Origin: a virus
Lineage: Duplodnaviria; Caudoviricetes
IMG/VR virus record: IMGVR_UViG_3300046504_000195
Location: 1-54,933 of that record
Direction: 5' to 3' (one strand)
DNA: 54,933 nt
Under the pieces are notes generated by a model. The model did no database searches. It saw only the letters and a list, made by a program, of their open reading frames with translations, and was not told the DNA's origin. This document shows positions 21,276 through 54,747 of the stretch, piece by piece; position 1 is the stretch's first letter, and every line of letters starts with the position of its first letter. Position numbers and translations under genes: made by a program.

Positions 21276-21306
21276 TTTGTATTTATAATTTTAATGCATA
21301 TATTTG
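21276..21306 (+). promoter_or_regulatory. Bacteroidota-type sigmaA promoter, tRNA array 1
   Basis: TTTG-N19-TATATTTG. Confidence 0.75.
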
Positions 21307-21338
21307 CACCGTGTAGTTAAACATTTTTAAAGTAGAAG

Positions 21339-21413
21339 ATGATGAAAAATTTCTTACATATCCAGCCCCAACCACAACATCCGCAAGATGCTGAATGGGA
21401 AAGATATGCTTGA
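21339..21413 (+). CDS. Leader peptide 1 (MMKNFLHIQPQPQHPQDAEWERYA)
   Basis: 9 of codons 7-16 are His/Gln/Pro; lies between promoter and terminator upstream of Pro/His/Gln tRNAs. Confidence 0.8.
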   Translation: MMKNFLHIQPQPQHPQDAEWERYA

Positions 21414-21451
21414 AACTTTCATCGAAGTTGGAAAGAATTAAGTTAAACATG

Positions 21452-21479
21452 AACCCCATTCGCAAGAGTGGGGTTTTTT
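21452..21479 (+). terminator. Attenuator terminator 1
   Basis: AACCCCATTC-GCAA-GAGTGGGGTT-TTTT; 5' arm also pairs with GAATGGG at 21393-21399. Confidence 0.85.
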
Positions 21480-21494
21480 CGTTCTTTAATATAT

Positions 21495-21589
21495 CAGGGG
21501 TTGATCGAGTTGGTTGAAGATGCTGGTCTTGGAAGCCAGTGACGGCACAAAGGTAGTGTCGTCCGTGGGTTCGAACCCCACACCCCTGA
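21495..21589 (+). tRNA. tRNA-Pro(TGG) with long variable arm
   Basis: CAGGGGT/ACCCCTG-A; loop CTTGGAA; ~25-nt extra arm. Confidence 0.85.
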
Positions 21590-21595
21590 CAATAA

Positions 21596-21670
21596 CTGGG
21601 TGTTCCGCAGATGGCTATACGGGCGTGTTCCGGAGACACGTGTTCGCAGGTTCAAATCCTGCCATCCAGA
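21596..21670 (+). tRNA. tRNA-Pro(CGG), C33
   Basis: CTGGGTG/CATCCAG; loop TCCGGAG. Confidence 0.85.
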
Positions 21671-21676
21671 CAACAT

Positions 21677-21752
21677 GGTGAAGGTAGTTCAATGGTAGAA
21701 TTCCAGATTGTGGTTCTGGTAGTTGCGGGTTCGAGTCCCGTCCTTCACCCCA
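21677..21752 (+). tRNA. tRNA-His(GTG)
   Basis: G-1, 8-bp acceptor stem, loop TTGTGGT, CCA. Confidence 0.93.
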
Positions 21753-21838
21753 AAATATCGTCAGAAAATACGATAATTTGAAAATATCGTGTGTAGATAG
21801 CATAAACAGTATTTATGCATTAAAAGCACGATAAATTT

Positions 21839-21914
21839 CGGGATGTGGTGTAGTTGGTAACATGCGTGCTTTGGGAGCATGAGACCGTGGGTTCGAGTCC
21901 CGCCATCCCGACCA
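21839..21914 (+). tRNA. tRNA-Pro(TGG)
   Basis: CGGGATG/CATCCCG-ACCA; loop TTTGGGA. Confidence 0.95.
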
Positions 21915-21917
21915 TAT

Positions 21918-21993
21918 GGTGATTGTAGAGGAATTGGTAGACTCTCCTGACTGTGAATCAGGAATCTTGCGGGTTCGAGTCCCGTCTTTCACC
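21918..21993 (+). tRNA. tRNA-His(GTG), second copy
   Basis: Loop CTGTGAA; two acceptor-stem mismatches. Confidence 0.8.
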
Positions 21994-22007
21994 CAAATAT
22001 TGACGTT

Positions 22008-22148
22008 ATGAGAAAAGGTAACAAACAAAATGCTTTCCTTAATGGCGAATGGGCAGCACACATGCGTAAATGGGGTAAATTTTTCACCGCCAAGGCACGT
22101 AGAACTGTCGATAAAAAAGTTATCAGGGAAGAACTTAAAAATGCATGA
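22008..22148 (+). CDS. Small basic hypothetical protein (46 aa)
   Basis: MRKGNKQNAFLNGEWAAHMRKWGK... between tRNAs. Confidence 0.55.
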   Translation: MRKGNKQNAFLNGEWAAHMRKWGKFFTAKARRTVDKKVIREELKNA

Positions 22149-22192
22149 TAAAATAATGTGATATTTTAAATTATCACGCATTTAAGTGATAT

Positions 22193-22265
22193 TGTCTTAT
22201 GGTGTAATTGGCAACACGTTTGACTCTGAATCAAAAGAGTGGGGGTTCGAAACCCTCTAAGACAA
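22193..22265 (+). tRNA. tRNA-Gln(CTG)
   Basis: TGTCTTA/TAAGACA; loop CTCTGAA. Confidence 0.9.
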
Positions 22266-22316
22266 CAATAGATTTTTTGCAATAAGTACTGAAAAACGGT
22301 CCTTTGCGCAAAATAT

Positions 22317-22399
22317 TGCCCTCTGGCAGAATGGTTATTGCATCGGTCTTTGAAGCCGACACTCATCAGGGTTTGTGGGTTCGAGTCCCACGGGGGCGA
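22317..22399 (+). tRNA. tRNA-Gln(TTG) with long variable arm
   Basis: Loop CTTTGAA; ~15-nt extra arm. Confidence 0.8.
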
Positions 22400-22414
22400 C
22401 AATGAAATTTATAT

Positions 22415-22488
22415 TGTCCTTTGGTGTAATTGGTTAACACATCTGATTTTGATTCAGGCGAGTGTAGGTTCGAGTCCTACAAGGACAA
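22415..22488 (+). tRNA. tRNA-Gln(TTG)
   Basis: TGTCCTT/AAGGACA; loop TTTTGAT. Confidence 0.9.
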
Positions 22489-23175
22489 CTAATTTATAAT
22501 TTTGATTCTTTGAGGATCAAAAACCATTCTAACTGTTGATTTGGTCACACCACCTTGATAACTATCAAGAACTCCAAGTACATCTACAATATCATAACCC
22601 AATTGTTGTGCAATTACTGCCAGATCATCTGTTGTAAGTTTAGTTCCATTTCCGGTGATTGTATCTTGAAACATTTGTAAATATTTATCAATTGTACCAT
22701 CATCAATACCATCATCATTCAATGCTTTTCTCACAGCATCAATACGAATTCCTCTGAATTTTTCACCATGCGCAGGAACTTGTAGTATTTTACCACTATC
22801 ATCTATATTGACTTTGATTGTGTTTGGAATTGATTCCTGATAATCAAATGCTCTTTTATCGTTTGCATATGTATTTGCAACACCATAATTGTCTGTAAAA
22901 AATATTGGTTTTTTAAACGGCATTCTACCATGCAGAGTTCCGGCATCTTTTAAAAGTTCAAAATATAATTTTTCGTCACCTGCTTCTCTTGCTTTCTGCA
23001 TTCCTGCCTGCAATTCGTTCCATTTTTGAGGATCAGTAATATAAGTTGCAGTACTGGTCCTTGGAACAAAATTACCTGCCTTTTTAACATCTCTGATATC
23101 AGGAGTACCATGATACCAAACCTTGTTTTGGACCACTTCAGCAATTACCTCATTTATAATATTGACAATATTCAT
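22489..23175 (-). CDS. Possible ADP-ribosyltransferase-like protein
   Basis: WYHGT, IFFTDN..VA.TYA, GYD, VFDPQRIK resemble phage ART-like domains. Confidence 0.5.
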   Translation of the reverse strand: MNIVNIINEVIAEVVQNKVWYHGTPDIRDVKKAGNFVPRTSTATYITDPQKWNELQAGMQKAREAGDEKLYFELLKDAGTLHGRMPFKKPIFFTDNYGVANTYANDKRAFDYQESIPNTIKVNIDDSGKILQVPAHGEKFRGIRIDAVRKALNDDGIDDGTIDKYLQMFQDTITGNGTKLTTDDLAVIAQQLGYDIVDVLGVLDSYQGGVTKSTVRMVFDPQRIKIIN

Positions 23176-23193
23176 ATAAATAAATACTAAAAT

Positions 23194-23224
23194 TTGTAAC
23201 ATATTGTATTTATTTTCGTATAAT
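23194..23224 (+). promoter_or_regulatory. ECF-like promoter (2 mismatches)
   Basis: TTGTAACATAT-N10-TTCGTATAAT. Confidence 0.6.
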
Positions 23225-23242
23225 TGCACAAACAAATTAACA

Positions 23243-23626
23243 ATGGGATACAAATTATTTCTTGACGATTTCCGTGAGCCACGTGATGCATTCTTTTATA
23301 AAGGGTTTCCAATATATAATGAGGATGATTGGACTGTCGTGCGTAATTATTCGGAATTCGTTAAAGTAATTGAAGAACTTGGAATTCCTGAAGCAGTTAG
23401 TTTTGACCATGATTTGGCAGATGTTCATTATGAAAAATCGTCATTCAATTATGACGATGAAAATTTGGAAAAGACCGGATATCATTGTGCCAAATGGTTG
23501 ATCTATTATTGTATTGACAACAAAAAAGAACTTCCTGCAATCATTTTAGTTCATTCAATGAATACTGCAGGAAGTCAGAATATTTGGTCATTATTTAATA
23601 GTTATTGGAAATCACTTAAAATGTAA
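23243..23626 (+). CDS. Cyclic-phosphate-processing receiver-like domain protein
   Basis: LFLDD.R.P, VRNY.EF, SFDHDL, TGY.CAKWL, VHSMN. Confidence 0.75.
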   Translation: MGYKLFLDDFREPRDAFFYKGFPIYNEDDWTVVRNYSEFVKVIEELGIPEAVSFDHDLADVHYEKSSFNYDDENLEKTGYHCAKWLIYYCIDNKKELPAIILVHSMNTAGSQNIWSLFNSYWKSLKM

Positions 23627-23629
23627 TTA

Positions 23630-24103
23630 TTATGAGATGGGTTTATCATTAATAATATCTTTATTTTCCAAAATATTGGGTTTTTTATTTTCTAAGTCTT
23701 TGAGTCTCTGATCTTCTAAATCTCTAAGTCTCTGATCATGATCCAAAAGTTTCTTATGAATTATAATTAACTCCAAACTAATGCTTTTTACTTCTAATTT
23801 TAATTCCTTGATTTCAACTTTTGTTTCTTTCATTTCAATTCGTAATTCTTTAATGTCTCTCTTGATTTCCAAAATGGCTTCCATAACAGCATCCATTTTA
23901 AGATGAAAAGAGGCATTATTATCAATAAGAATTTCAGCCAAGAAACGTTGATTTTCACTGAGTTTATCCTTTAAATAACCAATAACACCATCAAATTCTC
24001 TTTTAATAAACTGACGATCTCCGCCAGTAAGTGTTATACCCGACATGCCCTTTTCTGACATAGTTGGTTGCTCAATTAATTCTTGTACTGTCTTTTTTGC
24101 CAT
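23630..24103 (-). CDS. Coiled-coil hypothetical protein
   Basis: Heptad-rich C-terminal half. Confidence 0.7.
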   Translation of the reverse strand: MAKKTVQELIEQPTMSEKGMSGITLTGGDRQFIKREFDGVIGYLKDKLSENQRFLAEILIDNNASFHLKMDAVMEAILEIKRDIKELRIEMKETKVEIKELKLEVKSISLELIIIHKKLLDHDQRLRDLEDQRLKDLENKKPNILENKDIINDKPIS

Positions 24104-24157
24104 TTTGTTTAATTACTTTAATGTTGTAGATATGCTTTATACTATCTACTGATGGTA

Positions 24158-24529
24158 TTATTTGTTGTTTTTTTTTAATTCTTCAATAAAATTATCTAAA
24201 TCTTGTTTTGTTGCTAATCTATTGTTTCTAATAAAATTAGTTACAGCATTTGTAAGATTTTCCTGGCTTCTTTGCACTTGATTTACTTTACCTTCAAGTA
24301 CTGCCAAGCCATTTAATTTCAACAGTATTGAATCTCTGATAACTCTGTCTTGCTGTTGATTCTGAATTACAGTCTCAACTTTATCCTTGACAATAACTGC
24401 ACTGCTATCTTTCTTGGTAAAGTAAGCACTTACAAGCCAAATACTTGCAGCAAAACCAAAGACTGCAGAAAAAGTCACCATGACTTTAAATGCTTTTTTA
24501 AATGTACCATTTGTTGTACCTGTTGTCAT
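24158..24529 (-). CDS. Membrane-anchored coiled-coil protein
   Basis: N-terminal TM helix. Confidence 0.65.
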   Translation of the reverse strand: MTTGTTNGTFKKAFKVMVTFSAVFGFAASIWLVSAYFTKKDSSAVIVKDKVETVIQNQQQDRVIRDSILLKLNGLAVLEGKVNQVQRSQENLTNAVTNFIRNNRLATKQDLDNFIEELKKNNK

Positions 24530-24628
24530 TTTGAAATTTTATGTTAAACTATTCAATAATAAATAGTCAAATATTTCATAAAATAACACAAATTTTAGTG
24601 ATTATTATCATAACATAAAATTACTCAA

Positions 24629-25720
24629 TTATCTTCTTGTACCTGAAGTTCTTGAAGAACTTGAACCACCAGAATTTGAACCACTACCCGAACTTCTGTT
24701 GGCACTACCGGAATTATATGAACCACTTGAATAGTTAGAACTTCTATTAACATTGCCAGAATTATAACTTCTTGATGGCTGTGAATATGTTGAACTTCTT
24801 GAAGGTACAGAATAATTGCGTGATTGAGTACTTCTTTGATTATTTGATTGAATATAAGTACGTCTTTCCGTATTTGCCTGAGTACGTGATTGAGTATTTA
24901 CTTGAGACCTTCTATTCAATATGTTATTATCAATACGTGAATTATTATATTGAGGTCTTGTATTCATACGTGGATTATTGTAGGAAGGTTGATATGACCT
25001 TCTGTTTGCTTGATACGTTGCTTTTGTTTGTGGTTGGACCACACGTCTATTAATATTTGATGAACTTTCTTGACGAATATGTGCATATCCATGATTACTA
25101 TTATATCCATTACCACCATTATTCCAATTATGATTGTGAGTATACCAATTATGATTGCCGGACCAATTATGATTATGTCTCCAAGGACTCCAATTAGAAT
25201 ACCACCAATTATTGAATCCGAAACCAAAACCGAAATCATTATAATACCAAGGATTCCAGAATGAACTTCCCATGAATCCATATTCCCAATTCCAATTATC
25301 CATCATCCAATAGTTATTATAAAACCAAGGGTCTGAATACATCCAATAATTAAAACCGCCATGATAGAACCTTCCAATATTATATGAGTATAAAAAAGGG
25401 TCGTATTCATAATAATTAACATTGATATTAGGATTTTCTTTTACGAGTGTATCTACGATTGCTCTTAACGTGTCTTCAGTATTAACTCTTTTGTGTTTTT
25501 TGATTTTTTGAGCATCTTTATTTGGTTGATAATACAAATCATCATATTCAGGTTTTACTGAAGTAATTTGATTTTCTGTTGCATTATTACTTGAAGTCAT
25601 TTGACTTTTTGTAATCGAGTCTTCCCTGGCTTGCCAATATTTTTCATAATTGGATATTTTCTGTGCTGATAATGTGAACGTTAAAAGCACAAGTACGATT
25701 GATAATAGTAGTTTTTTCAT
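24629..25720 (-). CDS. Secreted Bacteroidota-like low-complexity protein
   Basis: Signal peptide MKKLLLSIVLVLLTFTLSAQ, YDDLYY motif, W/Y/G-rich middle, S/R/N-rich tail. Confidence 0.7.
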   Translation of the reverse strand: MKKLLLSIVLVLLTFTLSAQKISNYEKYWQAREDSITKSQMTSSNNATENQITSVKPEYDDLYYQPNKDAQKIKKHKRVNTEDTLRAIVDTLVKENPNINVNYYEYDPFLYSYNIGRFYHGGFNYWMYSDPWFYNNYWMMDNWNWEYGFMGSSFWNPWYYNDFGFGFGFNNWWYSNWSPWRHNHNWSGNHNWYTHNHNWNNGGNGYNSNHGYAHIRQESSSNINRRVVQPQTKATYQANRRSYQPSYNNPRMNTRPQYNNSRIDNNILNRRSQVNTQSRTQANTERRTYIQSNNQRSTQSRNYSVPSRSSTYSQPSRSYNSGNVNRSSNYSSGSYNSGSANRSSGSGSNSGGSSSSRTSGTRR

Positions 25721-25806
25721 TTTTATATATATTATATGTATATAAATAGCAATATTCATACCAAAGTTTTTCTATCTTTAAGGTGTATTTATAAGAAATT
25801 CAAATT

Positions 25807-26739
25807 ATGAAGGCAAAAAAAGATACTAAGCAATTGTTATTTGAAAACATGGCTAAATTAAACCCAACCTTTAAGCCAAAATTAAATGAAGATATGGGTT
25901 ATAGTTATGAACCACCAATGTTAAAATCACAACCAAATGATTCTTACAAAAAAATAATGAGTGATTTTCCTGGTCATGCTAAAAGTGCTAATCCAATTGA
26001 TTCTCCACAATATAAATGGTATCAACGTGTATCGAAGTTTATTCAAGGTAATAATAATGTAAATGAAAAGGCAGAATTAGTTAAATTTTTTCAAAACAAT
26101 TTTTTGGGTATGGATTATGACATACTTCAAACACCTGCAGAAACTGTGAGTTGGTGGTTATCTCCCGAACAACAAGAATTTATAAAAGATGAAATGAATA
26201 CTCCAAAAGACAGTAATGATGATTTAAACGAAGATAGTGAATTTCAAGAAAAAATTAAAAATGGTGATGTTTGGTTAGATTACTATGCACCTTCAGATAG
26301 TGAAGAATATACCGATGGACAATTTTGGTATAATAGAAGTGGTCAGGCAATGAGAGACCCTGAAGAATATAATCCACATAGTGATGGATATACACCATTT
26401 GGTGATGAAAGTGTGGTTAAGGAATCTCCTATGTTTGGTGGAGAAAAGGTATCGCAGGATCAATATGATGAACTTCAATACGATAAAGCCAATATGGAAA
26501 AAGCAATGGGTGATGCATTCAAAACACCTGAAGGTTATCAAATGAAACATCCTGCAAATCCTGGTGAAACCATTCAATTAAAAGATGGTGATAATGTATT
26601 AGTGAAAAGTATAGATCAAGCAACTGGAAATATTAACGTGAGATTATTTTTTAATGATAAAGATGCAATAAAATTCTCACCAAAAGGATATGCTGATGTT
26701 AGTTGGAGTCCGGTACAATTCGATACAATTGTTGGTTAG
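25807..26739 (+). CDS. Hypothetical protein with shared N-terminal motif
   Basis: MKAKKDTKQLLFENMAKLNPTFKPKLNE; late motif at 25785-25793. Confidence 0.75.
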   Translation: MKAKKDTKQLLFENMAKLNPTFKPKLNEDMGYSYEPPMLKSQPNDSYKKIMSDFPGHAKSANPIDSPQYKWYQRVSKFIQGNNNVNEKAELVKFFQNNFLGMDYDILQTPAETVSWWLSPEQQEFIKDEMNTPKDSNDDLNEDSEFQEKIKNGDVWLDYYAPSDSEEYTDGQFWYNRSGQAMRDPEEYNPHSDGYTPFGDESVVKESPMFGGEKVSQDQYDELQYDKANMEKAMGDAFKTPEGYQMKHPANPGETIQLKDGDNVLVKSIDQATGNINVRLFFNDKDAIKFSPKGYADVSWSPVQFDTIVG

Positions 26740-26785
26740 ATTTATTTAGAATCCGTATAAATAATATTACAATACTTTTTGACTT

Positions 26786-27064
26786 ATGAAAAAAGATAGT
26801 AGAGAAAGACTTTTCGAAGTCATGCAAAGGGTTGATAAAACATTCAAACCTAAATTGAATGAAGACTTCGGTGAAGAAAAAGAACTTGTTGTTTCGGAAG
26901 ATATAAATATTGATGTAGAAGTGGGTGACACTATTATGATGGGCAGATTTAAAAATTCGCCAACAGTAGTAAAGTCAATAGGAAAAGACGAACATGGTAT
27001 GCCAATTATTAACGGTAAGAAAGTAGTAACATTTAGAAAGGCTACTGAAAAAAATAAAAAATAA
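26786..27064 (+). CDS. Hypothetical protein with shared N-terminal motif
   Basis: RERLFEVMQRVDKTFKPKLNE. Confidence 0.75.
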   Translation: MKKDSRERLFEVMQRVDKTFKPKLNEDFGEEKELVVSEDINIDVEVGDTIMMGRFKNSPTVVKSIGKDEHGMPIINGKKVVTFRKATEKNKK

Positions 27065-27096
27065 TTTAAATTTTTTTAAAAATAATTGAAAAAATA

Positions 27097-27126
27097 TTTG
27101 GAATTAAGAAAACTTTATTATCTTTG
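27097..27126 (+). promoter_or_regulatory. Bacteroidota-type promoter, tRNA array 2
   Basis: TTTG-N18-TATCTTTG. Confidence 0.75.
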
Positions 27127-27170
27127 CCGAGTATTTAATTGAAAGAAACAACGAATTTAATAACAAAACA

Positions 27171-27263
27171 ATGAAAAGGTTATTCGACATATTGGTAGCA
27201 GTCCTCATGGTGGATGTCCTATTATGGGCAGCCGAAGAGGATAAGTTATGCACTGTCGGGTAA
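27171..27263 (+). CDS. Leader peptide 2 (MKRLFDILVAVLMVDVLLWAAEEDKLCTVG)
   Basis: 17 of codons 6-24 are D/E/L/V/A/W. Confidence 0.8.
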   Translation: MKRLFDILVAVLMVDVLLWAAEEDKLCTVG

Positions 27264-27295
27264 TACTTGAATATTACACTCCTTTCTTTTACAAG

Positions 27296-27332
27296 AAAAA
27301 AACCCGACTACTCATAACAGTCGGGTTTTTTT
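27296..27332 (+). terminator. Attenuator terminator 2
   Basis: AACCCGACT...AGTCGGGTT-TTTTT; 5' arm also pairs with GTCGGGT at 27255-27261. Confidence 0.85.
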
Positions 27333-27348
27333 ATGCAAGAAAGGAGAG

Positions 27349-27360
27349 GTTCTTTGACAT
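27349..27360 (+). promoter_or_regulatory. boxA-like element
   Basis: GTTCTTTGACAT just before the first tRNA. Confidence 0.55.
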
Positions 27361-27372
27361 GTTGGAAATTTC

Positions 27373-27442
27373 GAGGTCGTAGTTTAATGGTTAGAATATC
27401 GCACTGTCTATGCGAGGAAGGGGTTCGAATCCCACGGCTTCG
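27373..27442 (+). tRNA. tRNA-Asp(GTC)
   Basis: GAGGTCG/CGGCTTC-G; loop CTGTCTA. Confidence 0.85.
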
Positions 27443-27504
27443 GCATACTTGTTTATTTGATATTTATTTATTATTTTTGTCGAACACTAAGTATTTATAT
27501 TTAA

Positions 27505-28155
27505 ATGACAGACATGAATAAAATAATATTGGAAAAAACAATAAAAGAATCTATATCATTTTCTGACGTATCGAGAAAGATATATGGAAATAATTTATGT
27601 GGTAATAGACAAACAATAAAAAAATATGTGAAACAATATAATATAGATATTTCACATTTCATTCAAATACCGCAAAAACATAATTTTCGTTCTAAAAGAG
27701 AACTTTCCGAAATATTGGTGGAGCATTCGATTTTTGATACAACAAATTTAAAAAATCGTTTATATTATGAAGGATTAAAAAAACGAATTTGTGAAAAATG
27801 TGGACAAGACGAAAATTGGCACGGTGAACACATAAGTTTAATTCTTGATCATATTAATGGTATAAATGATGATTTAAGAATAGAAAATTTAAGAATACTT
27901 TGTCCTAATTGTAACGCAACATTACCCACACATGGTGGCAAAAACGTAAAGCATAAATCAAAAGAAAAAATAAATAAACTTAGAAATTCTCAAAAAGTAT
28001 CTATGTCTCAACGAAAAGTAATGCGTCCACCACATGAACAACTTCAAAACGAAATAAATGAATTAGGATTTACAGGAACTGGAAAAAAATATGGTGTAAG
28101 TGATAATGCAATAAGAAAATGGATTAAATTTTATAATAAACATACACTCTCGTAG
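27505..28155 (+). CDS. HNH endonuclease (free-standing, homing-type)
   Basis: CEKC..LILDHINGINDDLRIENLRILCPNC; C-terminal HTH. Confidence 0.88.
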   Translation: MTDMNKIILEKTIKESISFSDVSRKIYGNNLCGNRQTIKKYVKQYNIDISHFIQIPQKHNFRSKRELSEILVEHSIFDTTNLKNRLYYEGLKKRICEKCGQDENWHGEHISLILDHINGINDDLRIENLRILCPNCNATLPTHGGKNVKHKSKEKINKLRNSQKVSMSQRKVMRPPHEQLQNEINELGFTGTGKKYGVSDNAIRKWIKFYNKHTLS

Positions 28156-28220: not shown

Positions 28221-28227
28221 CAAAAAT

Positions 28228-48582: not shown

Positions 48583-48606
48583 AACTCTTCAAATCAGATA
48601 TTTAAG

Positions 48607-48636
48607 AACCTCAGAAAATTTTCTGAGGTTTTTTTT
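48607..48636 (+). terminator. Intrinsic terminator
   Basis: AACCTCAGAAAATTTTCTGAGGTT-TTTTTT. Confidence 0.88.
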
Positions 48637-48656: not shown

Positions 48657-48687
48657 TTTGGTGGTAATGAAACATTTTATATCTTTG
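48657..48687 (+). promoter_or_regulatory. Bacteroidota-type promoter, tRNA array 4
   Basis: TTTG-N19-TATCTTTG. Confidence 0.78.
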
Positions 48688-48754: not shown

Positions 48755-48886
48755 ATGAAAACGTACAGGCACATATCAGCAATCATTACATCGACCTCAA
48801 GTCGCAACGGGATATCTATATTCTGTTCAGACTTTACAGGCAGAAATAATGGAATTGATACGGGTTATGGTTTTCTTATGAGATAA
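48755..48886 (+). CDS. Leader peptide 4 (MKTYRHISAIITSTSSRNGISIFCSDFTGRNNGIDTGYGFLMR)
   Basis: 26 of codons 7-34 are T/S/I/R/N/G/F/C. Confidence 0.8.
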   Translation: MKTYRHISAIITSTSSRNGISIFCSDFTGRNNGIDTGYGFLMR

Positions 48887-48907: not shown

Positions 48908-48939
48908 AAAAACCCGAATCGCAAGTTTCGGGTTTTTTT
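48908..48939 (+). terminator. Attenuator terminator 4
   Basis: AAAAACCCGAA..GCAA..TTCGGGTTTTTTT; 5' arm also pairs with GATACGGGTT at 48857-48866. Confidence 0.85.
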
Positions 48940-48956
48940 GTTGTTCTTTCAGATAT

Positions 48957-49027
48957 GCCGAGATAGTCCAAAGGTAGAACTTCTGTGTGGTATTCAGAGG
49001 ATACGAGTTCGAGTCTCGTTCTTGGCT
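48957..49027 (+). tRNA. tRNA-Thr(GGT)
   Basis: GCCGAGA/TCTTGGC; loop GTGGTAT. Confidence 0.8.
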
Positions 49028-49035
49028 CAAATAAA

Positions 49036-49137
49036 ATAAGGTTATAACCTTATATCTTATGAATATAAGATTATTGCCTTAATAAAATATAACTCTTACA
49101 GGTTATAAACACAATTAATAACCCAAGCAGGTTATTA
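49036..49137. repeat. Cluster of ATAACC/GGTTAT palindromes
   Basis: Perfect palindrome ATAAGGTTATAACCTTAT plus three related inverted repeats. Confidence 0.6.
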
Positions 49138-49147
49138 TCTGTAAGAC

Positions 49148-49159
49148 GATCTTTGACAT
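49148..49159 (+). promoter_or_regulatory. boxA-like element
   Basis: GATCTTTGACAT. Confidence 0.55.
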
Positions 49160-49171
49160 GCTGGTAATTTT

Positions 49172-49256
49172 GTCGGGATGCCTGAGTGGTTGAAGGGGAC
49201 GGTCTGCAAAACCGTTTGCTACGCACGCATGGGTTCGAATCCCATTCCCGACTCCA
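49172..49256 (+). tRNA. tRNA-Cys(GCA) with long variable arm
   Basis: GTCGGGA/TCCCGAC-TCCA; loop CTGCAAA. Confidence 0.88.
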
Positions 49257-49258
49257 AT

Positions 49259-49334
49259 GTTCCTGTCGTACTATAACTGGTAAGACCGCACCCTGTTAAG
49301 GTGAACAATGTAGGTTCGAATCCTACCGGGAACG
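49259..49334 (+). tRNA. tRNA-Asn(GTT)
   Basis: GTTCCTG/CGGGAAC-G; loop CTGTTAA. Confidence 0.82.
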
Positions 49335-49339
49335 CAAAT

Positions 49340-49412
49340 TGTCTCGTAACTCAGTTGGTAGAGTATCACACTGATAATGTGGAAGTCGTCAGTTCAAGTC
49401 TGACCGAGACAA
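49340..49412 (+). tRNA. tRNA-Ile(GAT)
   Basis: TGTCTCG/CGAGACA; loop CTGATAA. Confidence 0.92.
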
Positions 49413-49422
49413 CTAATAATAT

Positions 49423-49503
49423 AGTGAGGTGGATGAATGGTTTAGTCACCTGTCTGATACACAGGGTCGCAAGACGATGTGGGTTCGAGTCCCATCTTCA
49501 CTA
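49423..49503 (+). tRNA. tRNA-Ile(GAT) with long variable arm
   Basis: AGTGAGG/CTTCACT; loop CTGATAC; arm GTCGCAAGAC. Confidence 0.85.
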
Positions 49504-49532
49504 CAACCTGACGAGGTTCTTGTTGCAACATG

Positions 49533-49619
49533 AGCAACTGAAAGTTTATAGCATAGTGGCAATGCTGCCCATTGAAAAGGGTGAAGATTGGTTCGAATCC
49601 AATTAAACAATCGGTTGCT
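49533..49619 (+). ncRNA. tRNA-like RNA with extended acceptor stem and 8-nt anticodon loop
   Basis: AGCAACTGA-AA-GTTTA / TAAAC-AA-TCGGTTGCT; normal D and T arms; loop ATTGAAAA. Confidence 0.6.
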
Positions 49620-49624
49620 ATTTT

Positions 49625-49711
49625 GGAGAGTTGTCTGAGTGGTCTATAGAGGCGGTCTTGAAAACCGTTGGGCGTTCGTTCGCCCCGTGGGTTCGAATCC
49701 TACACTCTCCG
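49625..49711 (+). tRNA. tRNA-Ser(TGA)
   Basis: GGAGAGT/ACTCTCC-G; loop CTTGAAA; long arm. Confidence 0.93.
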
Positions 49712-49784
49712 CAAAGTCAAGTGCAATGGATTACATCACTTGACCTAAACATTGAAAAGGAAGTCATGAGCCAATTCAGTGTAA

Positions 49785-49938
49785 TAGTTCTGGGTTGCAT
49801 AAGAGGCTGCCCTAATGTTCAGTAGAAAATTTTGTGCACGCATTTGGCAATGCGGTTATGTGCATTATCGACTCCGAGACATTTATGATAGTTGTAATAC
49901 TAACGGGAAACGTGAGTAGAAGGCTCACACCAGAACTT
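49785..49938 (+). ncRNA. Structured ncRNA candidate
   Basis: Closing stem AGTTCTGG/CCAGAACT; inner TGCAC..CGCATT/AATGCG..GTGCA and GTGAGT/GCTCAC. Confidence 0.45.
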
Positions 49939-49942
49939 AAAC

Positions 49943-50015
49943 GGAGCAGTAGCAAAGGTGGTCTATGCACCGGACTGAAAATCCGGCTATGTTGGTTCGA
50001 CTCCAACCTGCTCCA
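49943..50015 (+). tRNA. tRNA-Phe(GAA)
   Basis: GGAGCAG/CTGCTCC; loop CTGAAAA. Confidence 0.92.
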
Positions 50016-50024
50016 CCGATTTTT

Positions 50025-50143
50025 CGATTTTTAGGCAAATCATCCTTCCTTCTTTTAGGACTATCCACGTCCTATGGGTTGCACGAATGCAAAATTCCCC
50101 CTGCCTCAGAGCAGGTGAATCCAAGAGGTTCAGCAAAAAGTCG
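50025..50143 (+). ncRNA. Four-hairpin structured ncRNA candidate
   Basis: CGATTTTT/AAAAGTCG closes TAGGAC/GTCCTA, TTGCA/TGCAA, CCTGC/GCAGG, TGAATC/GGTTCA. Confidence 0.5.
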
Positions 50144-50149
50144 TGGCAC

Positions 50150-50221
50150 GCAGGTGTAGCACAAAGGTTAGTGTGTCAGACTTCCAATCTGATGATGTGG
50201 GTTCGATTCCCATCACCTGCT
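50150..50221 (+). tRNA. tRNA-Gly(TCC)
   Basis: GCAGGTG/CACCTGC-T; loop CTTCCAA. Confidence 0.93.
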
Positions 50222-50275
50222 CAAAAAAGGTCTGAGGGAGTCCTTTAAAGGTATAAATAACCTGTCCCTCTCCAT

Positions 50276-50348
50276 AGTGGTGTGGCGCAATGGTTGGCGC
50301 AGGACTCTTATAAGGTCAAGGTTGGGGGTTCAAGTCCCTTCACCACTA
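50276..50348 (+). tRNA. tRNA-Ile(TAT)
   Basis: AGTGGTG/CACCACT; loop CTTATAA. Confidence 0.85.
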
Positions 50349-50353
50349 CAAAT

Positions 50354-50427
50354 GCATCGGTGGCTCAGTTGGTCAGAGCAATTGACTGTTAATCAATGGG
50401 TCGCAGGTTCGAATCCTGCCCGGTGCG
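50354..50427 (+). tRNA. tRNA-Asn(GTT)
   Basis: GCATCGG/CCGGTGC-G; loop CTGTTAA. Confidence 0.93.
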
Positions 50428-50499
50428 CAAAAATAATTTATTAAGTATTGATTTTGTAATCTATTTTGTTTACTTTTGAAGTTTACTTTATTTAATTAA

Positions 50500-50685
50500 A
50501 TGGAAGTTAATCTTGAAAAACTAAAAGATGAGAATATCAAATTGATTAAAAAAATCAAAAATTCTCGATTCACTAACGGTCATAGATACAAACAATGCTA
50601 TTTTGAACCGGATAAAAAAGTACCAAACAACTATAATTGTTGTTTACCTTGTGATATTTATTGTCCAAATAGAATAAAAAATTAA
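50500..50685 (+). CDS. Small Cys-rich hypothetical protein
   Basis: ORF. Confidence 0.5.
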   Translation: MEVNLEKLKDENIKLIKKIKNSRFTNGHRYKQCYFEPDKKVPNNYNCCLPCDIYCPNRIKN

Positions 50686-51035
50686 TGAAGAAATACTTAT
50701 TTGTAGGCGAAAGAAGAAGTCCAACTGCAATACGAATGAATGTCACATGGGTTGACAAACGCCTTTGTGCCGGACACCTTTCAAAAGCCGTAGAAAACCT
50801 TGGAATTGATTGGAATGAATGTGCCTTTTTAAATGTGTTTGAAGATGATATACGGGACATCAGAGTATTTAAAGGTGTAGTTATAGCAATGGGAAGAAAC
50901 GTTGAGAAAGTGCTTAAAAAAGAACAAATCAGGCATGAATTCATTTATCATCCTGCAACACGTGGAGCAGTAAGAAATATACAAAAATACAAGGATCACG
51001 TAAAAGAAAGAATAGGACACATAGTATTGTCATGA
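50685..51035 (+). CDS. Hypothetical protein, possible UDG-like fold
   Basis: LFVGE..FLNV..VIAMGR..IYHPA. Confidence 0.55.
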   Translation: MKKYLFVGERRSPTAIRMNVTWVDKRLCAGHLSKAVENLGIDWNECAFLNVFEDDIRDIRVFKGVVIAMGRNVEKVLKKEQIRHEFIYHPATRGAVRNIQKYKDHVKERIGHIVLS

Positions 51036-51226
51036 CAAATAAAAAAAAGAAAAAACAATATGACAGAAAACGTTATCTTGAAAAGAAACAATATTTCAAC
51101 GATAAAAGTAAAAAGTGGGCAGATGCTCATAAAGAATTTCTACAAGAATATCAAAAGGAATGGAATGAAAATCATAAAGACTATCAAAAAAACTATTATT
51201 TGGAACACAAGAAATTGCCGGAATAA
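51032..51226 (+). CDS. Basic helical protein (resembles an HNH N-terminal region)
   Basis: K/Y/W periodic repeats; overlaps tRNA-Thr. Confidence 0.5.
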   Translation: MTNKKKKKQYDRKRYLEKKQYFNDKSKKWADAHKEFLQEYQKEWNENHKDYQKNYYLEHKKLPE

Positions 51227-51289
51227 CTCAATTGGTAGAGTATCTGATTCGTATTCAGAATGTTGCAGATTCGAGTTCTGCTTCTGGCT
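51217..51289 (+). tRNA. tRNA-Thr(CGT)
   Basis: GCCGGAA/TTCTGGC; loop TTCGTAT. Confidence 0.85.
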
Positions 51290-51302
51290 CAAAAATAAAA
51301 AT

Positions 51303-51758
51303 ATGAGAAAACCGAATACGTGTTGCTCTGATTGTGGTAAACCATTATATCGTAGACCATGCGAACTTATTAAGTGGAAAAAGGTTTATTGTAAAAATTG
51401 TCAGAAACTACATATGAATGATGCAGCAAAAGTGAAAAATGATAGTCTCTATGTTGCATATATTGCAAAATGGAAAGCAGGTTTGGTTGATGGAATGAAA
51501 GGCGAATATCAAATATCTCGACATTTAATAAGGTATTTATTTGAAAAATTTGGTAATAAATGTAGCAAATGTGGTTGGAATGAAGTAAATCCATTTACTA
51601 AAAAAATACCTTTAGAAACTGAACACATTGATGGCGATTATAGAAATAACAAAGAAGAAAATTTGGATTTATTATGTCCTAATTGTCATAGTTTAACACC
51701 AACATATAAAGGTGCAAACAGAGGTAAAGGAAGAAAAGAAAGAAAAAAGTATGCCTGA
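51303..51758 (+). CDS. HNH endonuclease
   Basis: LETEHIDGDYRNNKEENLDLLCPNCH; start moved to MRKPN. Confidence 0.88.
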   Translation: MRKPNTCCSDCGKPLYRRPCELIKWKKVYCKNCQKLHMNDAAKVKNDSLYVAYIAKWKAGLVDGMKGEYQISRHLIRYLFEKFGNKCSKCGWNEVNPFTKKIPLETEHIDGDYRNNKEENLDLLCPNCHSLTPTYKGANRGKGRKERKKYA

Positions 51759-51826
51759 TTAACTTTAATTGGTAGAGTGCCACACTTGTAATGTGGAAGT
51801 TGGGGGTTCGAGTCCCTCATTAGGCT
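51753..51826 (+). tRNA. tRNA-Thr(TGT)
   Basis: GCCTGAT/ATTAGGC; loop CTTGTAA. Confidence 0.92.
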
Positions 51827-51837
51827 CAATAAATAAT

Positions 51838-51920
51838 GCCGATATGGTTCAGTGGCGACAACACCAGTTTTGTAAACTGGCACTTAATAGACATCGGGGG
51901 TTCGAATCCCTCTATCGGCT
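51838..51920 (+). tRNA. tRNA-Thr(TGT), long variable region
   Basis: GCCGATA/TATCGGC; loop TTTGTAA; 15-nt extra region. Confidence 0.82.
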
Positions 51921-51935
51921 CAAATACAATTAGTT

Positions 51936-52160
51936 ATGGAAAGACTACCAAGTGAAAATCATGAAGAAAAATTCTTGAAGAAATTACAATCAAGATTTAA
52001 AGAGTATGTTGATCTGACACCATACTTAGTAAAGGTTGCAATTGTAACAGTAATAATATTTATTGCATCTTCATTAATTTGGTATAGTTTTTTTCGTATT
52101 GACAAAAATAAGCCAATATATAAAAACATTATCGAGCAATTTGAATCAAAGAAAAAATGA
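51936..52160 (+). CDS. Small membrane protein
   Basis: One TM helix. Confidence 0.6.
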   Translation: MERLPSENHEEKFLKKLQSRFKEYVDLTPYLVKVAIVTVIIFIASSLIWYSFFRIDKNKPIYKNIIEQFESKKK

Positions 52161-52405
52161 AATTATTGATAAAATTTCCAGATCAATCAACATCATTTAC
52201 ATATGGTGTTGAATTTGGCAGGCTTTTGGAAAAAATTGAAAGAGGGGATGATGTCATAATGAATAATGGTTTTCCTGTAAGAATAGAAAATGTCAATTTA
52301 TTGAAAGAAACATGTCAGAAATTCGGATATATTCCTATCTTTGGCAAAAAATATTTTAATGAATGGATTGAATTTGTAGGCATTAAACAATCAAATAAGA
52401 ATTAA
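52157..52405 (+). CDS. Hypothetical protein
   Basis: Start overlaps upstream stop. Confidence 0.65.
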   Translation: MKLLIKFPDQSTSFTYGVEFGRLLEKIERGDDVIMNNGFPVRIENVNLLKETCQKFGYIPIFGKKYFNEWIEFVGIKQSNKN

Positions 52406-52406
52406 A

Positions 52407-52955
52407 ATGGGCAAAAAGGAAATCCGTAAAAACAAAATCCCGCATCAATACTTTGTGACCAAAGGATTCGGAGTTGATCCTTTTGAGAAACATGCAGGTG
52501 CATATCACATGGCATTGTATGATGCAGGGATAGCAAATTTTAATATTCAAACATATAGTTCAGTACTTTCACCACACTCTGAATTGGTTACTCTTGATGA
52601 AATTGATTTGGATGAATATGGCAGTGAAATGAAATGCATAATGTCTTGTGAATTCGGTGAATTTGGTGAATACATCAGTGCCGGAATAGCATACGCATGG
52701 ATGTACAAAGATCAGGAGTTCGATAAAAAGTTTGGTGGAATAGTTTGCGAGGTCCACGGAAAATTTTCAATTGACAGTCTTGAAGAAAGACTTTATATGG
52801 TTTTAAATAATTTGTATGAAAAAACATATAAAGATAAAGGTCTGTTTCTTGGTGAACCTCAAGTAATAACACAAGGTGGTTCAGTACCTAATAATATAAG
52901 GTATGGTTGTGCATTGGTTTCACTTTGTTTTGTAAATTATATAATTGTAGAATGA
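52407..52955 (+). CDS. pdaD: Pyruvoyl-dependent arginine decarboxylase
   Basis: IP.QYFVTKG.G, ALYDAGIANFNIQTYSSVL (SS self-cleavage site), ISAGIAYA, GIVCE. Confidence 0.82.
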   Translation: MGKKEIRKNKIPHQYFVTKGFGVDPFEKHAGAYHMALYDAGIANFNIQTYSSVLSPHSELVTLDEIDLDEYGSEMKCIMSCEFGEFGEYISAGIAYAWMYKDQEFDKKFGGIVCEVHGKFSIDSLEERLYMVLNNLYEKTYKDKGLFLGEPQVITQGGSVPNNIRYGCALVSLCFVNYIIVE

Positions 52956-53374
52956 AAACTATAATTTGTAAGAACTGTAATAATCCAATTGGTTTTAAAA
53001 ATTGGAGAAAACAACAATTTTGTAATAAAAAATGCGAAGGTGAATATAAATCTAAGATGAAATATCTGGATTATTTAAATAATAATGAAAAATATTGTAA
53101 AGCATCATATGCACTTAGAGCCATAAAACCACATATATTAAAAGAACAAAATAATAAGTGTGCAATTTGTAATAATGAAAATATTTGGAATAATAAATTT
53201 TTGGTATTCATTATGGATCATATTGATGGTAACGCATCTAACAATAAACGTGAAAATGTCAGATTAATTTGTCCTAACTGTGATAGCCAATTAGATACAT
53301 ATAAATCAAAAAATAAAAATTCGGCAAGAAAAGAAAGATATTTACAATCAAAAAATCATGCACCCGTAGCATAA
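52952..53374 (+). CDS. HNH endonuclease
   Basis: IMDHIDGNASNNKRENVRLICPNC. Confidence 0.88.
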   Translation: MKTIICKNCNNPIGFKNWRKQQFCNKKCEGEYKSKMKYLDYLNNNEKYCKASYALRAIKPHILKEQNNKCAICNNENIWNNKFLVFIMDHIDGNASNNKRENVRLICPNCDSQLDTYKSKNKNSARKERYLQSKNHAPVA

Positions 53375-53433
53375 CTGGACAATGCATCACTCTTCTAAAG
53401 TGGTGATTGTGGGTTCGAGTCCCACCGGGTGTA
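53360..53433 (+). tRNA. tRNA-Arg(TCT)
   Basis: GCACCCG/CGGGTGT; loop CTTCTAA. Confidence 0.92.
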
Positions 53434-53449
53434 CAAATAAATTTTGAAT

Positions 53450-53593
53450 ATGGCAACAGCAATTTGTCCTAAGTGTGGAAAAGTAATTTATGTACCTGAT
53501 AGTCCGGTACAATTGGAAAAAGATTTTGTAATTTGTTGTGATGAAGTAATATACATACCAAGTGAAGTACAAGATAGTAAAGATGAAGCATAA
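53450..53593 (+). CDS. Small Zn-ribbon-like protein (47 aa)
   Basis: MATAICPKCGK..ICCDE. Confidence 0.55.
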   Translation: MATAICPKCGKVIYVPDSPVQLEKDFVICCDEVIYIPSEVQDSKDEA

Positions 53594-53774
53594 ATTGGAA
53601 TACACTGATAATAAGGTGTTTATTTCATTAAATGGTTATGCTTTTATTGATGAAGGCGGTCAGACAATAATAATTGTGTACGGAGAAGGTCGCAGAGACG
53701 ATATGTCGAAGTATTTAAATGAAAATGGTGACAGAATAGGAATAAAGTATAAGATAATTAATTTGCTCTCATAG
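53583..53774 (+). CDS. Hypothetical protein
   Basis: ORF. Confidence 0.5.
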   Translation: MKHKLEYTDNKVFISLNGYAFIDEGGQTIIIVYGEGRRDDMSKYLNENGDRIGIKYKIINLLS

Positions 53775-53836
53775 TTTAATGGATAGAATTGGGGTTTCCT
53801 AAACCTTAGATTCGGGTTCGATTCCCGGTGAGAGTA
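53765..53836 (+). tRNA. tRNA-Arg(CCT)
   Basis: GCTCTCA/TGAGAGT; loop TTCCTAA. Confidence 0.9.
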
Positions 53837-53852
53837 CTAAAACAACACTTTT

Positions 53853-54050
53853 ATGAGAACAAGTGAAGTAAATAAAAAGATGAGAGAACTTAAAAAAGTT
53901 GGTTTGCTTGATAATTTTACAAGAGTGCAAAAAAAACTTTTAAAACAATTAATAGAAAACCAACAAGATTTTATCATCATGGAGAATGACCGGAAAGAAA
54001 CCGAAAAATCTCTTTTTAAAGCAAAAGGTTTGGAATTACATTTAAAATAA
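53853..54050 (+). CDS. Hypothetical protein
   Basis: ORF. Confidence 0.55.
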   Translation: MRTSEVNKKMRELKKVGLLDNFTRVQKKLLKQLIENQQDFIIMENDRKETEKSLFKAKGLELHLK

Positions 54051-54063
54051 ATTTATACAACAA

Positions 54064-54291
54064 ATGGAAATAATACTTAATATCGAAATTTCTGACTCTG
54101 AAATAATTCTTCTCAAAAGTTTTAAAGAGCATGAACGAAAAATATTTAATGAATATCATTCCATCGCATGGGAACTCGAATATAAAGGAATATTGTTATC
54201 GACAACTCTTAATGAACAAGGCAAAGAAACAAATAATCGATACTTTCTACTTTCAGGACTTGGTAAAGAAATTATAAAAGAAATTATATGA
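54064..54291 (+). CDS. Hypothetical protein (winged-helix-like)
   Basis: LEYKGIL..YFLLSGLGKE. Confidence 0.55.
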   Translation: MEIILNIEISDSEIILLKSFKEHERKIFNEYHSIAWELEYKGILLSTTLNEQGKETNNRYFLLSGLGKEIIKEII

Positions 54292-54299
54292 ACAAGAAT

Positions 54300-54372
54300 G
54301 CCTCTGTAGTTCAATGGATAGAACGTGAGTCCTCGGAACTCACTGTTGGGGGTTCGAGTCCCTCCAGGGGTA
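54300..54372 (+). tRNA. tRNA-Arg(TCG), C33
   Basis: GCCTCTG/CAGGGGT; loop CCTCGGA. Confidence 0.87.
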
Positions 54373-54375
54373 CAA

Positions 54376-54669
54376 ATGAAAACAACTGAATTAATACCAG
54401 TGTTTGTTGACCAATTGCCTCTTGAAGTCGAAGAAGGTAAGATGTATATTACAGATAAATATGGTATATCTGTCCATCTTTGTGCTTGTGGTTGTGGTGA
54501 AAAAACTTTTCTACCGTTCAGACATATAATTGAGGGTCAAGAGCATGGATGGGTTCATTCAATTCAAGACGGTAAAGTTTCTACAACACCGTCAATAGGT
54601 AATTGGTTGTGGGAGAATCCTTATCATGCACATTATTTTATAGTGAATAACAAAATAGTTTGGTGTTAA
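54376..54669 (+). CDS. DUF6527-like protein
   Basis: HLCACGCGEK..PSIGNW..HYFI..I.W. Confidence 0.7.
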   Translation: MKTTELIPVFVDQLPLEVEEGKMYITDKYGISVHLCACGCGEKTFLPFRHIIEGQEHGWVHSIQDGKVSTTPSIGNWLWENPYHAHYFIVNNKIVWC

Positions 54670-54672
54670 TAT

Positions 54673-54747
54673 GCACCCGTAGCATAATTGGATTAGTGCA
54701 TTGGTCTACGAAACCAAAGGTTGTGAGTTCGAATCTCACCGGGTGTA
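54673..54747 (+). tRNA. tRNA-Arg(ACG)
   Basis: GCACCCG/CGGGTGT; loop CTACGAA. Confidence 0.92.

Follow-up and report, generated by a model that had tools for sequence, protein, structure and literature searches.

The window analyzed here, the complete 54,933 nucleotides (nt) of the phage record IMGVR_UViG_3300046504_000195 (Caudoviricetes), carries four blocks of transfer RNA (tRNA) genes that are sorted by amino acid, and in front of each block lies a short open reading frame (ORF) whose codons match the amino acids of that block, followed by an intrinsic terminator. We propose that each of these cassettes is a ribosome-mediated transcription attenuator of the trp/his/thr/ilv type that gates tRNA genes, a reading to which we assign a probability of roughly 0.7 and for which the support is wholly comparative and from folding. 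In this model, host RNA polymerase would start at a Bacteroidota-type promoter, and a ribosome would load at the first ATG and read a leader of 24 to 43 codons that samples all of the amino acids, and most of the anticodons, of the downstream tRNAs. With fast decoding, the ribosome would reach the last codons and cover a 7-8 nt segment that copies the 3' arm of the terminator, the terminator would form, and transcription would stop before the tRNAs. If the ribosome instead stalled on any of the sampled codons, for want of the aminoacyl-tRNA, the segment would be free to pair with the terminator 5' arm, and the polymerase would read on, pass a boxA-like element, presumably become termination-resistant, and transcribe the array. 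The outcome would be four independent negative-feedback loops, one per codon class, that supply phage tRNA on demand, and the candidate triggers would be starvation, host shut-off, codon mismatch, and tRNA-cleaving defense.

Sorted tRNA blocks and the composition of their leaders

ARAGORN finds 45 tRNA genes and one transfer-messenger RNA (tmRNA) in the window, all on the + strand, and Rfam agrees on both the tRNAs and the tmRNA. The four blocks split the 20 amino acids 3+7+2+8 with zero overlap. Array 1 (21495-22489) consists of eight tRNAs, three for Pro, two for His, and three for Gln. Array 2 (27372-36025) has two tRNAs each for Asp, Glu, Val, and Ala, four for Leu, and one for Trp between 27372 and 30836, and these are followed by the tmRNA, two further Leu tRNAs, and one for Met; ORFs interrupt this array, HNH endonucleases among them. 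Array 3 (41165-42020) contains three Lys tRNAs and one Tyr tRNA and is closed by a terminator at 42021-42044, and array 4 (48957-54748), which is soon followed by the end of the window, contains four tRNAs for Thr, three for Ile, four for Arg, one each for Cys, Ser, Phe, Gly, and Asn, and one tRNA without an assigned identity.

Before each block the parts come in the same order: an unrelated gene ends, and then, on the + strand, come a -33/-7 promoter match, the short ORF, and a GC-rich hairpin followed by a T run. The leader ORF was taken as the longest ATG-initiated ORF that ends before the terminator, with composition not consulted, and in all four cassettes this ORF begins at the first ATG past the promoter. 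Leader ORF 1 (21339-21413, 24 codons) is rich in His, Gln, and Pro; leader ORF 2 (27171-27263, 30 codons) in Asp, Glu, Val, Leu, Ala, Trp, and Met; leader ORF 3 (40874-40966, 30 codons) in Lys and Tyr; and leader ORF 4 (48755-48886, 43 codons) in Thr, Ser, Ile, Arg, Asn, Gly, Phe, and Cys. The intrinsic terminators of cassettes 1, 3, and 4 (21451-21476, 40998-41023, and 48908-48937) were found by a general terminator scan, which missed terminator 2 (27300-27328) because of its 9-nt loop; a separate, purpose-written finder picked it up, and like terminator 1 it is followed by a T run. The sequence-only reading of this DNA had described both the grouping of the tRNA genes by amino acid and the shared cassette of promoter, short ORF, intrinsic terminator, and tRNAs, and both descriptions hold for all four blocks.

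The composition of each leader follows the array behind it. Measured against the amino-acid usage of the long ORFs in the window, residues of the own block fill 9/23, 21/29, 10/29, and 33/42 positions of leaders 1 to 4, where 2.1, 10.5, 3.8, and 17.4 would be expected (binomial P of 1e-4, 8e-5, 3e-3, and 1e-6, respectively), and over all four leaders they sum to 73 of 123 positions versus 33.8 expected, with 0 of 2,000,000 random draws as extreme. Among the 24 possible assignments of leaders to arrays, the true one ranks best, with a score of 16.6 versus 10.2 for the next, so that the permutation test proposed along with the earlier claim, that leader composition mirrors the array, comes out in its favor, with the addition that leader 3 is rich in block-4 residues as well. 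At the codon level, the leaders contain 45 distinct codons for their own amino acids (35.4 ± 2.4 expected from the synonymous usage of the phage) and 20 rare codons (7.3 ± 2.5 expected), and for 28 of the 34 distinct array anticodons the leader of the same array offers a fully complementary codon (versus 22.4 ± 2.1, P=0.006), cross-comparisons giving lower values.

The promoter matches lie at 21272-21306, 27097-27126, 40803-40834, and 48657-48687, and the gene upstream of the last of these has its own terminator at 48605-48632. The pattern is the Bacteroidota -33/-7 consensus as quoted in PMC7366714, and it has 10 matches in the window, four of them just upstream of the leaders and zero inside the arrays. 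Because the pattern itself is not enriched (10 matches versus 6.4 expected, with 15 of 100 shuffles reaching 10), these matches support position only. A scan of the window with the sigma-70 consensus was uninformative. The first tRNA begins 18, 43, and 19 nt past the terminator stem in cassettes 1, 2, and 4, and the boxA-like element lies inside this gap. The corresponding spacer of cassette 3, between terminator 3 and the first tRNA-Lys (41024-41164, 140 nt), contains repeated short A-rich units and mini-ORFs and has no boxA-like element, and at the equivalent position in relatives there are mini-ORFs rich in Lys, Asn, and Tyr.

Leaders and arrays in related phages

The record has an estimated completeness of 17% and a G+C content of about 30-38%. 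When the VWA-domain gene beside leader 4 was used as a query, 27 related loci were retrieved, including records of 321-365 kb, and it is on account of these relatives that we regard the window as a fragment of a jumbo phage. Against GenBank phages, megablast of 21200-27400 gave no match, and a search with the VWA protein gave only relatives at ≤33% identity and no close relative. The likely host phylum is Bacteroidota, given the promoter type and a 19-nt boxA-like element, discussed below, that is letter-identical to sequences in Bacteroidota genomes.

Five complete relatives (327-365 kb) have the same four blocks in the same order, together with all four leader families. Leader types 1 and 2 are present in five of five of them, these leaders having been reached through DNA searches of the five complete records and a 19-nt pattern scan; the flanking proteins of 310 and 108 aa, used as locus queries, retrieved no more than 2 and 3 loci. 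All four leader families recur in relatives, and the Lys/Tyr and Thr/Cys-led arrays recur in most of the 25 loci scanned. A leader of the block-4 family stands before the Thr/Cys-led array in all 20 loci that have this array, and of 19 loci with the Lys/Tyr array, 14 have a Lys/Tyr-rich leader no more than 450 nt from it; in four of the other five, the terminator is 330-420 nt upstream and the ORF is cut by the 450-nt window, and the fifth, which has a single Tyr tRNA, has no leader within 450 nt.

Homologues were aligned for leader 2 (21), leader 3 (15), and leader 4 (18), and homologues of leader 1 occur at other loci besides those in the complete relatives. The open frame from the first ATG is preserved in all homologues examined, and gaps within the leader ORFs of families 1, 2, and 4 are mostly multiples of three. 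Column variation at codon positions 1, 2, and 3 is 0.47, 0.53, and 0.86 in family 1 and 0.47, 0.61, and 0.73 in family 2. In the leader 2 homologues, residues change between genomes while the set of amino acids stays constant, the peptide cores of families 3 and 4 are well conserved, and the tails beyond the control zone vary or shift frame. The GC-rich hairpins and T runs are conserved across all four families.

The sequence-only reading had also asked for covariation of leaders with array content, and lineages that partition their tRNAs differently have leaders that follow. A scan with the 19-nt element gave 79 viral stretches, some with other tRNA partitions. In a lineage with two arrays, the control stretch of the first leader uses the eight amino acids of its eight-amino-acid array, and all 13 amino acids of the second array are found in its leader, from which the five that this array lacks are likewise missing. 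A lineage with one array has a 32-residue leader with 19 amino-acid types before an array of 19, Pro being missing from both, and in another single-array case Gly is missing from array and leader alike. Smaller changes are followed in the same way: a type-1 leader variant gains Arg where two tRNA-Arg genes head the array, and a type-2 variant has a control stretch without Val where the array has no tRNA-Val. Coverage is full in 10 of 10 leader-array pairs, with 85 of 85 array amino acids found in the leader, and the chance of full coverage per family is 0.68, 0.14, 0.10, 0.10, 0.06, 0.0015, 0.0003, and 0.00006. For six independent families, the true pairing ranks 1 of 720 permutations, and a match between peptide and own array is seen in no fewer than eight unrelated families.

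A composition-blind scan of all loci, for a short ORF followed by a terminator and then by a tRNA within 260 nt, gave 87 records, and a count made on 67 unique candidates irrespective of family finds own residues at 1198 of 2174 positions versus 653.9 expected. Individually, 46 of the 67 reach P<0.01 (mean 10.8 and maximum 20 when arrays are shuffled among records), and 56 of the 67 have full coverage (mean 21.0 and maximum 29 with shuffled arrays); these figures are descriptive because the records are related to one another.

A predicted switch at the terminator and competing readings

Common to the families is a stretch of 7-8 nt, located in the 3' portion of the leader, that repeats the sequence of the terminator's 3' arm and can pair with the 5' arm. 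These antiterminator strands (region 2, all on the + strand) lie at 21393-21400 in leader 1, at 27255-27261 in leader 2, where the segment overlaps the last two codons and the stop, at 40932-40939 in leader 3, and at 48860-48866 in leader 4. As a control, the partner was slid by 1-3 columns in the alignment, and pairing fell to 16-62%: from 98.8% of cells paired to at most 62% in family 1, from 94% to 20-50% in family 2, and from 87% to 16-60% in family 4. For leader 3, the pairing with the terminator 5' arm is that of the RNAalifold consensus. Family 1 has one compensatory change, which is mirrored in the leader, the 5' arm, and the 3' arm, families 2 and 4 have two each in the antiterminator, and in family 3 the antiterminator pairing is invariant. 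In 56 of the 59 unique leaders of the four families, the complementarity between leader and 5' arm exceeds that of 95% or more of the shuffles, and the region 2 motif is kept even where the reading frame differs.

A second element of the classical layout is a protector strand in the 5' part of the leader (region 1). For leader 2 it lies at 27182-27188 on the + strand (columns 12-18 paired with columns 95-101 in the RNAalifold consensus, 7 pairs), and the family 1 consensus fold includes a short protector helix. Single-sequence folds give a leader hairpin and the terminator in all four cassettes, protector pairing included. An antiterminator and a protector had both been claimed for all four leaders; the former is found in every family, the latter in the consensus folds of leaders 2 and 1 only.

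The switch was modeled by folding RNA truncated at the terminator loop, with a 28-nt ribosome mask moved along the leader. With the mask in the zone enriched in own residues, the 5' arm is predicted to be paired upstream with a probability of about 0.6-0.7, and with the mask over the final codons (some 6 to 14 of them, varying with the leader) this upstream pairing drops to about 0.1-0.3. Without a ribosome, the values for leaders 1 to 4 are 0.32, 0.14, 0.70, and 0.67, and with those values the full three-state logic is predicted in leaders 1 and 2 only. The enriched zone ends where a stalled ribosome would start to cover the antiterminator segment; by hand count, own residues fill 60 of 84 positions at which a ribosome, if stalled, would keep clear of the segment and 13 of 39 beyond.

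Several observations weigh against attenuation, or at least against parts of the case for it. In equilibrium folding of the full leader and terminator with a masked ribosome, the terminator always wins, and because the full-length RNA at equilibrium always prefers the terminator, the switch would have to be kinetic. The consensus folds of families 3 and 4 have no protector helix, and the naked truncated RNA of leaders 3 and 4 already pairs the 5' arm upstream, such that an off state in the absence of translation is not predicted for them. Compensatory changes are few, with 1-2 pairs per helix, and shuffles reach the observed covariation values in 51 of 500 cases for family 1, 5-19 of 500 for family 2, and 1-12 of 500 for family 4, and equal the number of additional pair types in 232 to 500 of the 500; the covariation statistics are modest because the variation is small. 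Antiterminator complementarity is weaker in other lineages (z of -1.1 to -1.9). With regard to translation, the third-position excess is weak in family 4 (0.84, 0.97, and 0.98) and absent in family 3, and a few homologues have frameshifted tails, two in the leader 2 alignment and one more in the set of complete relatives. Leader 3 is the weakest compositional match, with block-4 residues also abundant (17/29, P=0.046), and the GC-rich rare codons may partly reflect the needs of RNA structure, which makes the codon-level evidence softer. Among the 67 candidates, 21 are not significant at P<0.01 and 11 lack full coverage; several of these are arrays cut by locus ends or ORFs in alternative frames. 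Finally, the -7 box alone occurs inside arrays 2-4 at about chance density, and on the strength of these matches it is conceivable that distal tRNAs of the long arrays may have internal promoters.

These points bear differently on the readings that compete with attenuation. The one that survives best accepts that the leaders are translated and sense decoding speed, and lets them act by another route, through Rho-dependent polarity, ribosome-dependent RNA cleavage or stability, or processing of the tRNA precursor, with the hairpin and T run having only a structural or processing role. The composition and coverage results would suit any translation-coupled sensor, the boxA-like element suggests that Rho and Nus factors are relevant, and the equilibrium preference for the terminator and the second helix that encloses it in leader 2 would both fit. 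Such a route is nonetheless unlikely in our judgment, given that canonical GC-rich hairpins with T runs are conserved in all families and that a conserved copy of the 3' arm with compensatory changes would have no role unless the terminator is switched.

Quite improbable, too, is the view that the terminators are constitutive insulators or leaky attenuators, that the arrays are transcribed mainly from unrecognized promoters of a phage-specific or -7-only kind, and that the leaders are small genes of unrelated role. The -7-box-only matches in arrays 2-4 could be such promoters, as could a -7-like box that lies between the terminator and the boxA-like element in one other lineage (locus L064); cassette 3 has a 140-nt spacer behind its terminator, and leaderless arrays with only a promoter and a boxA-like element exist. 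This view leaves unexplained why leader composition tracks array content across lineages, and the gap from stem to tRNA in cassettes 1, 2, and 4 is too small for a promoter of a known type, with the full promoter pattern absent inside the arrays.

If the leaders were untranslated structured RNAs, riboswitch-like or T-box-like sensors of tRNA in which the ORFs are incidental, then the strong nucleotide conservation, internal hairpins, and lack of codon periodicity of families 3 and 4 and the retention of the region 2 motif where the frame differs would follow readily. Yet the match in amino-acid composition and coverage would be meaningless for an untranslated RNA, the open frame is kept in all homologues examined with indels mostly in threes, and variation is concentrated at third positions in families 1 and 2. 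The leaders match none of the Rfam families, T-box among them, at the gathering score, nor at E up to 1 over 20800-49100, and overall we consider an untranslated sensor very unlikely. That the ORFs encode small functional peptides, with a composition bias of other cause and a coincidental position before the arrays, might appeal to the well conserved cores of families 3 and 4 and to the hydrophobicity of leader 2, but is hardly credible when each of the unrelated families fits the array behind it, residues interchange within the set without positions being kept, and tails outside the control zone vary or shift frame.

Two stretches form the helix that encloses terminator 2: a pyrimidine-rich motif (27279-27288), which lies past the stop of leader 2 and ahead of the terminator and which we take to resemble the 3' end of 16S rRNA, and a purine-rich stretch past the T run (27338-27347). 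Single sequences make this helix look genuine; as a general part of the cassettes it was rejected, for it beats shuffles in only 4 of 19 cases and is absent from the other families. Its pairing partners differ between relatives, and at leader 2 it may be a processing site in read-through transcripts.

Known attenuators, the boxA-like element, and gene neighborhood

Classical leader-peptide attenuators control the enterobacterial trp, his, leu, thr, ilvGMEDA, and pheA operons and pheST. The sequence-only reading had recognized this layout in the phage, and it is borne out in that an ORF from the first ATG, cognate codons, a terminator, and an antiterminator segment are present and conserved. 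The phage cassettes share with the classical systems a promoter-proximal short ORF with cognate codons, an intrinsic terminator, an alternative pairing with its 5' arm, and, in families 1 and 2, a protector pairing predicted by the consensus folds, and leaders for several amino acids are found among the classical cases as well (thr, ilv). In contrast to the classical systems, the cassettes would regulate tRNAs and not biosynthetic enzymes or aminoacyl-tRNA synthetases, such that the feedback loop would be direct, the sensed molecule and the product being of the same class. Furthermore, classical leaders have runs of one or two amino acids, whereas a phage leader samples up to 8 amino acids here and up to 19 in other lineages, each by about one to a few codons that are distributed among isoacceptors; the cassettes are also phage-encoded and have a boxA-like element after the terminator. 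For the host phylum there is likely precedent in a flavobacterium, for which PMC9723704 reports strong clues to leader-peptide attenuators before amino-acid operons.

T-box riboswitches, which occur mainly in Firmicutes and control aminoacyl-tRNA synthetase or amino-acid genes, resemble the cassettes in that a leader reads tRNA charging and switches between terminator and antiterminator. They differ in that the T-box binds tRNA directly whereas sensing here would use the translating ribosome, and in that one phage leader covers many tRNA species, and the leaders have no T-box match. Phage tRNA clusters have been discussed as codon supplements or as a counter-defense against tRNA-cleaving immunity (PMC10264068 and PMC11464382), and the large phage-borne tRNA set and the Rnl1-like RNA ligase gene near the Lys/Tyr array are features in common with that work; those reports appear to concern which tRNAs phages carry and not a sensor that gates transcription. 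Full-text literature searches, with most subscription journals outside their coverage, returned no account of tRNA genes under the control of a leader peptide or of phage arrays sorted by amino acid with matched leaders, in agreement with the earlier impression that leader-peptide attenuation of tRNA operons has not been described.

The boxA-like element is found in three of the four cassettes and is absent from cassette 3. In cassette 2 it is a 19-nt element (27349-27367) located 4 nt before the first tRNA, and in cassettes 1 and 4 short versions (21481-21491, which shares the first 7 nt of the 19-nt element, and 48943-48953) precede the first tRNA, all on the + strand. In many phage arrays, leader or no leader, the 19-nt element stands 3-10 nt ahead of the first tRNA, and leaderless arrays exist with only a promoter and a boxA-like element. 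It is letter-identical in more than 120 stretches of Bacteroidota genomes, and in 79 of 123 occurrences 23S rRNA sequence lies within 450 nt downstream; an Rfam scan places it in the 16S-23S spacer, 97-110 nt before the 23S rRNA, in 4 of 8 loci. In 5 of the 123 occurrences it is followed by tRNA arrays, and these are probably phage contigs in bins. It was also seen on short contigs of one Bacteroides genome (L138, L201, L206, and L213), with no Rfam match in the three that were scanned (L138, L201, and L206), and at locus L216 it is present twice, in opposite orientation, with no Rfam match.

The 16S-23S spacer ahead of 23S rRNA is a known location of boxA elements in rRNA operons; the spacer boxA was reportedly described by Berg, Squires and Squires in 1989 (cited in PMC2800207), and our use of the name boxA presumes a similarity to its consensus, together with position. 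From its sequence and location, the 19-nt element is a probable boxA-type site of antitermination that the phage took over from host rRNA operons. It is like the rRNA-operon boxA, at which NusB/NusE nucleate, in that the identical element is found upstream of 23S rRNA in the host phylum, and it differs in that it here precedes tRNA arrays, downstream of a proposed attenuator, with Nus binding presumed from position and consensus similarity. A position after the attenuator would let the decision come first and then protect a long untranslated transcript, and the reuse of a host rRNA element at this point suggests an ordered two-step design, to decide and then to commit.

Taking the cassettes and the boxA-like element together, we lean toward a broader reading, somewhat less firmly than toward attenuation as such: giant Bacteroidota phages may carry a modular, self-regulating tRNA supply in which a "test strip" read by the ribosome stands before each block and the block is opened only when decoding slows. 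Such a system would be a direct homeostat of decoding capacity and an inducible response to the depletion of host tRNA, its processive antitermination would come from host rRNA operons, and leader-peptide attenuation would for the first time be seen to act on tRNA genes. Because the principle is met again in several lineages, whose tRNAs are split over four arrays, two, or one, it would be a general design and not the curiosity of one genome. Control of tRNA genes is usually ascribed to growth-rate and stringent mechanisms rather than to attenuation. If the proposal is correct, textbook attenuation would extend to a new class of output, and with the speed of the ribosome on codons as sensor and the tRNAs that read those codons as product, the feedback loop would be the shortest possible. 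The amino-acid sorting of the tRNA genes would be explained as well, since sorting lets one leader report one codon class. It would also provide a testable handle on the near-complete tRNA sets of large phages, which would be switched on by need, block by block, and such need-driven switching would fit with current work on tRNA-targeting antiphage systems. As small, naturally occurring sensors, the leaders would cover decoding capacity for up to 19 amino acids and could find use as reporters.

The genes around the arrays make up a translation-oriented island, which has no direct bearing on the mechanism. The T4 Rnl1-like RNA ligase gene (38298-39404) lies upstream of the Lys/Tyr array, and its family repairs anticodon-nuclease damage in T4. 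Beside the Pro/His/Gln block, on the - strand, is a gene for a radical SAM protein with a lysine-2,3-aminomutase C-terminal domain (19559-20764); this is the family of the enzyme for β-lysylation of EF-P, which would fit with proline-rich decoding. A homologue of pyruvoyl-dependent arginine decarboxylase (52407-52955) is located among the tRNA-Arg genes, and a ribonucleotide reductase gene is also encoded around the arrays.

Within the arrays themselves, two HNH endonuclease ORFs lie between tRNAs (27505-28155 and 29318-29728), and their insertion points differ among relatives. One relative (locus L053) has an HNH ORF between leader 1 and its array, and another (locus L055) has an insertion of ~300 nt at this site that is not HNH. 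The phage tmRNA in array 2 (33082-33564) has a tag peptide that is kept in four complete relatives, and a homologue of ribosomal protein L7/L12 (33642-34109) is directly 3' of it. Rfam gives two further tRNA-like matches that are not in the ARAGORN list, at 28308-28390 and 41421-41533, the latter of which is 113 nt and may hold an intron. Four relatives (loci L018, L019, L020, and L028) have a tRNA with the anticodon CTA, an amber suppressor labeled Pyl by ARAGORN, which hints at stop-codon recoding in part of the group.

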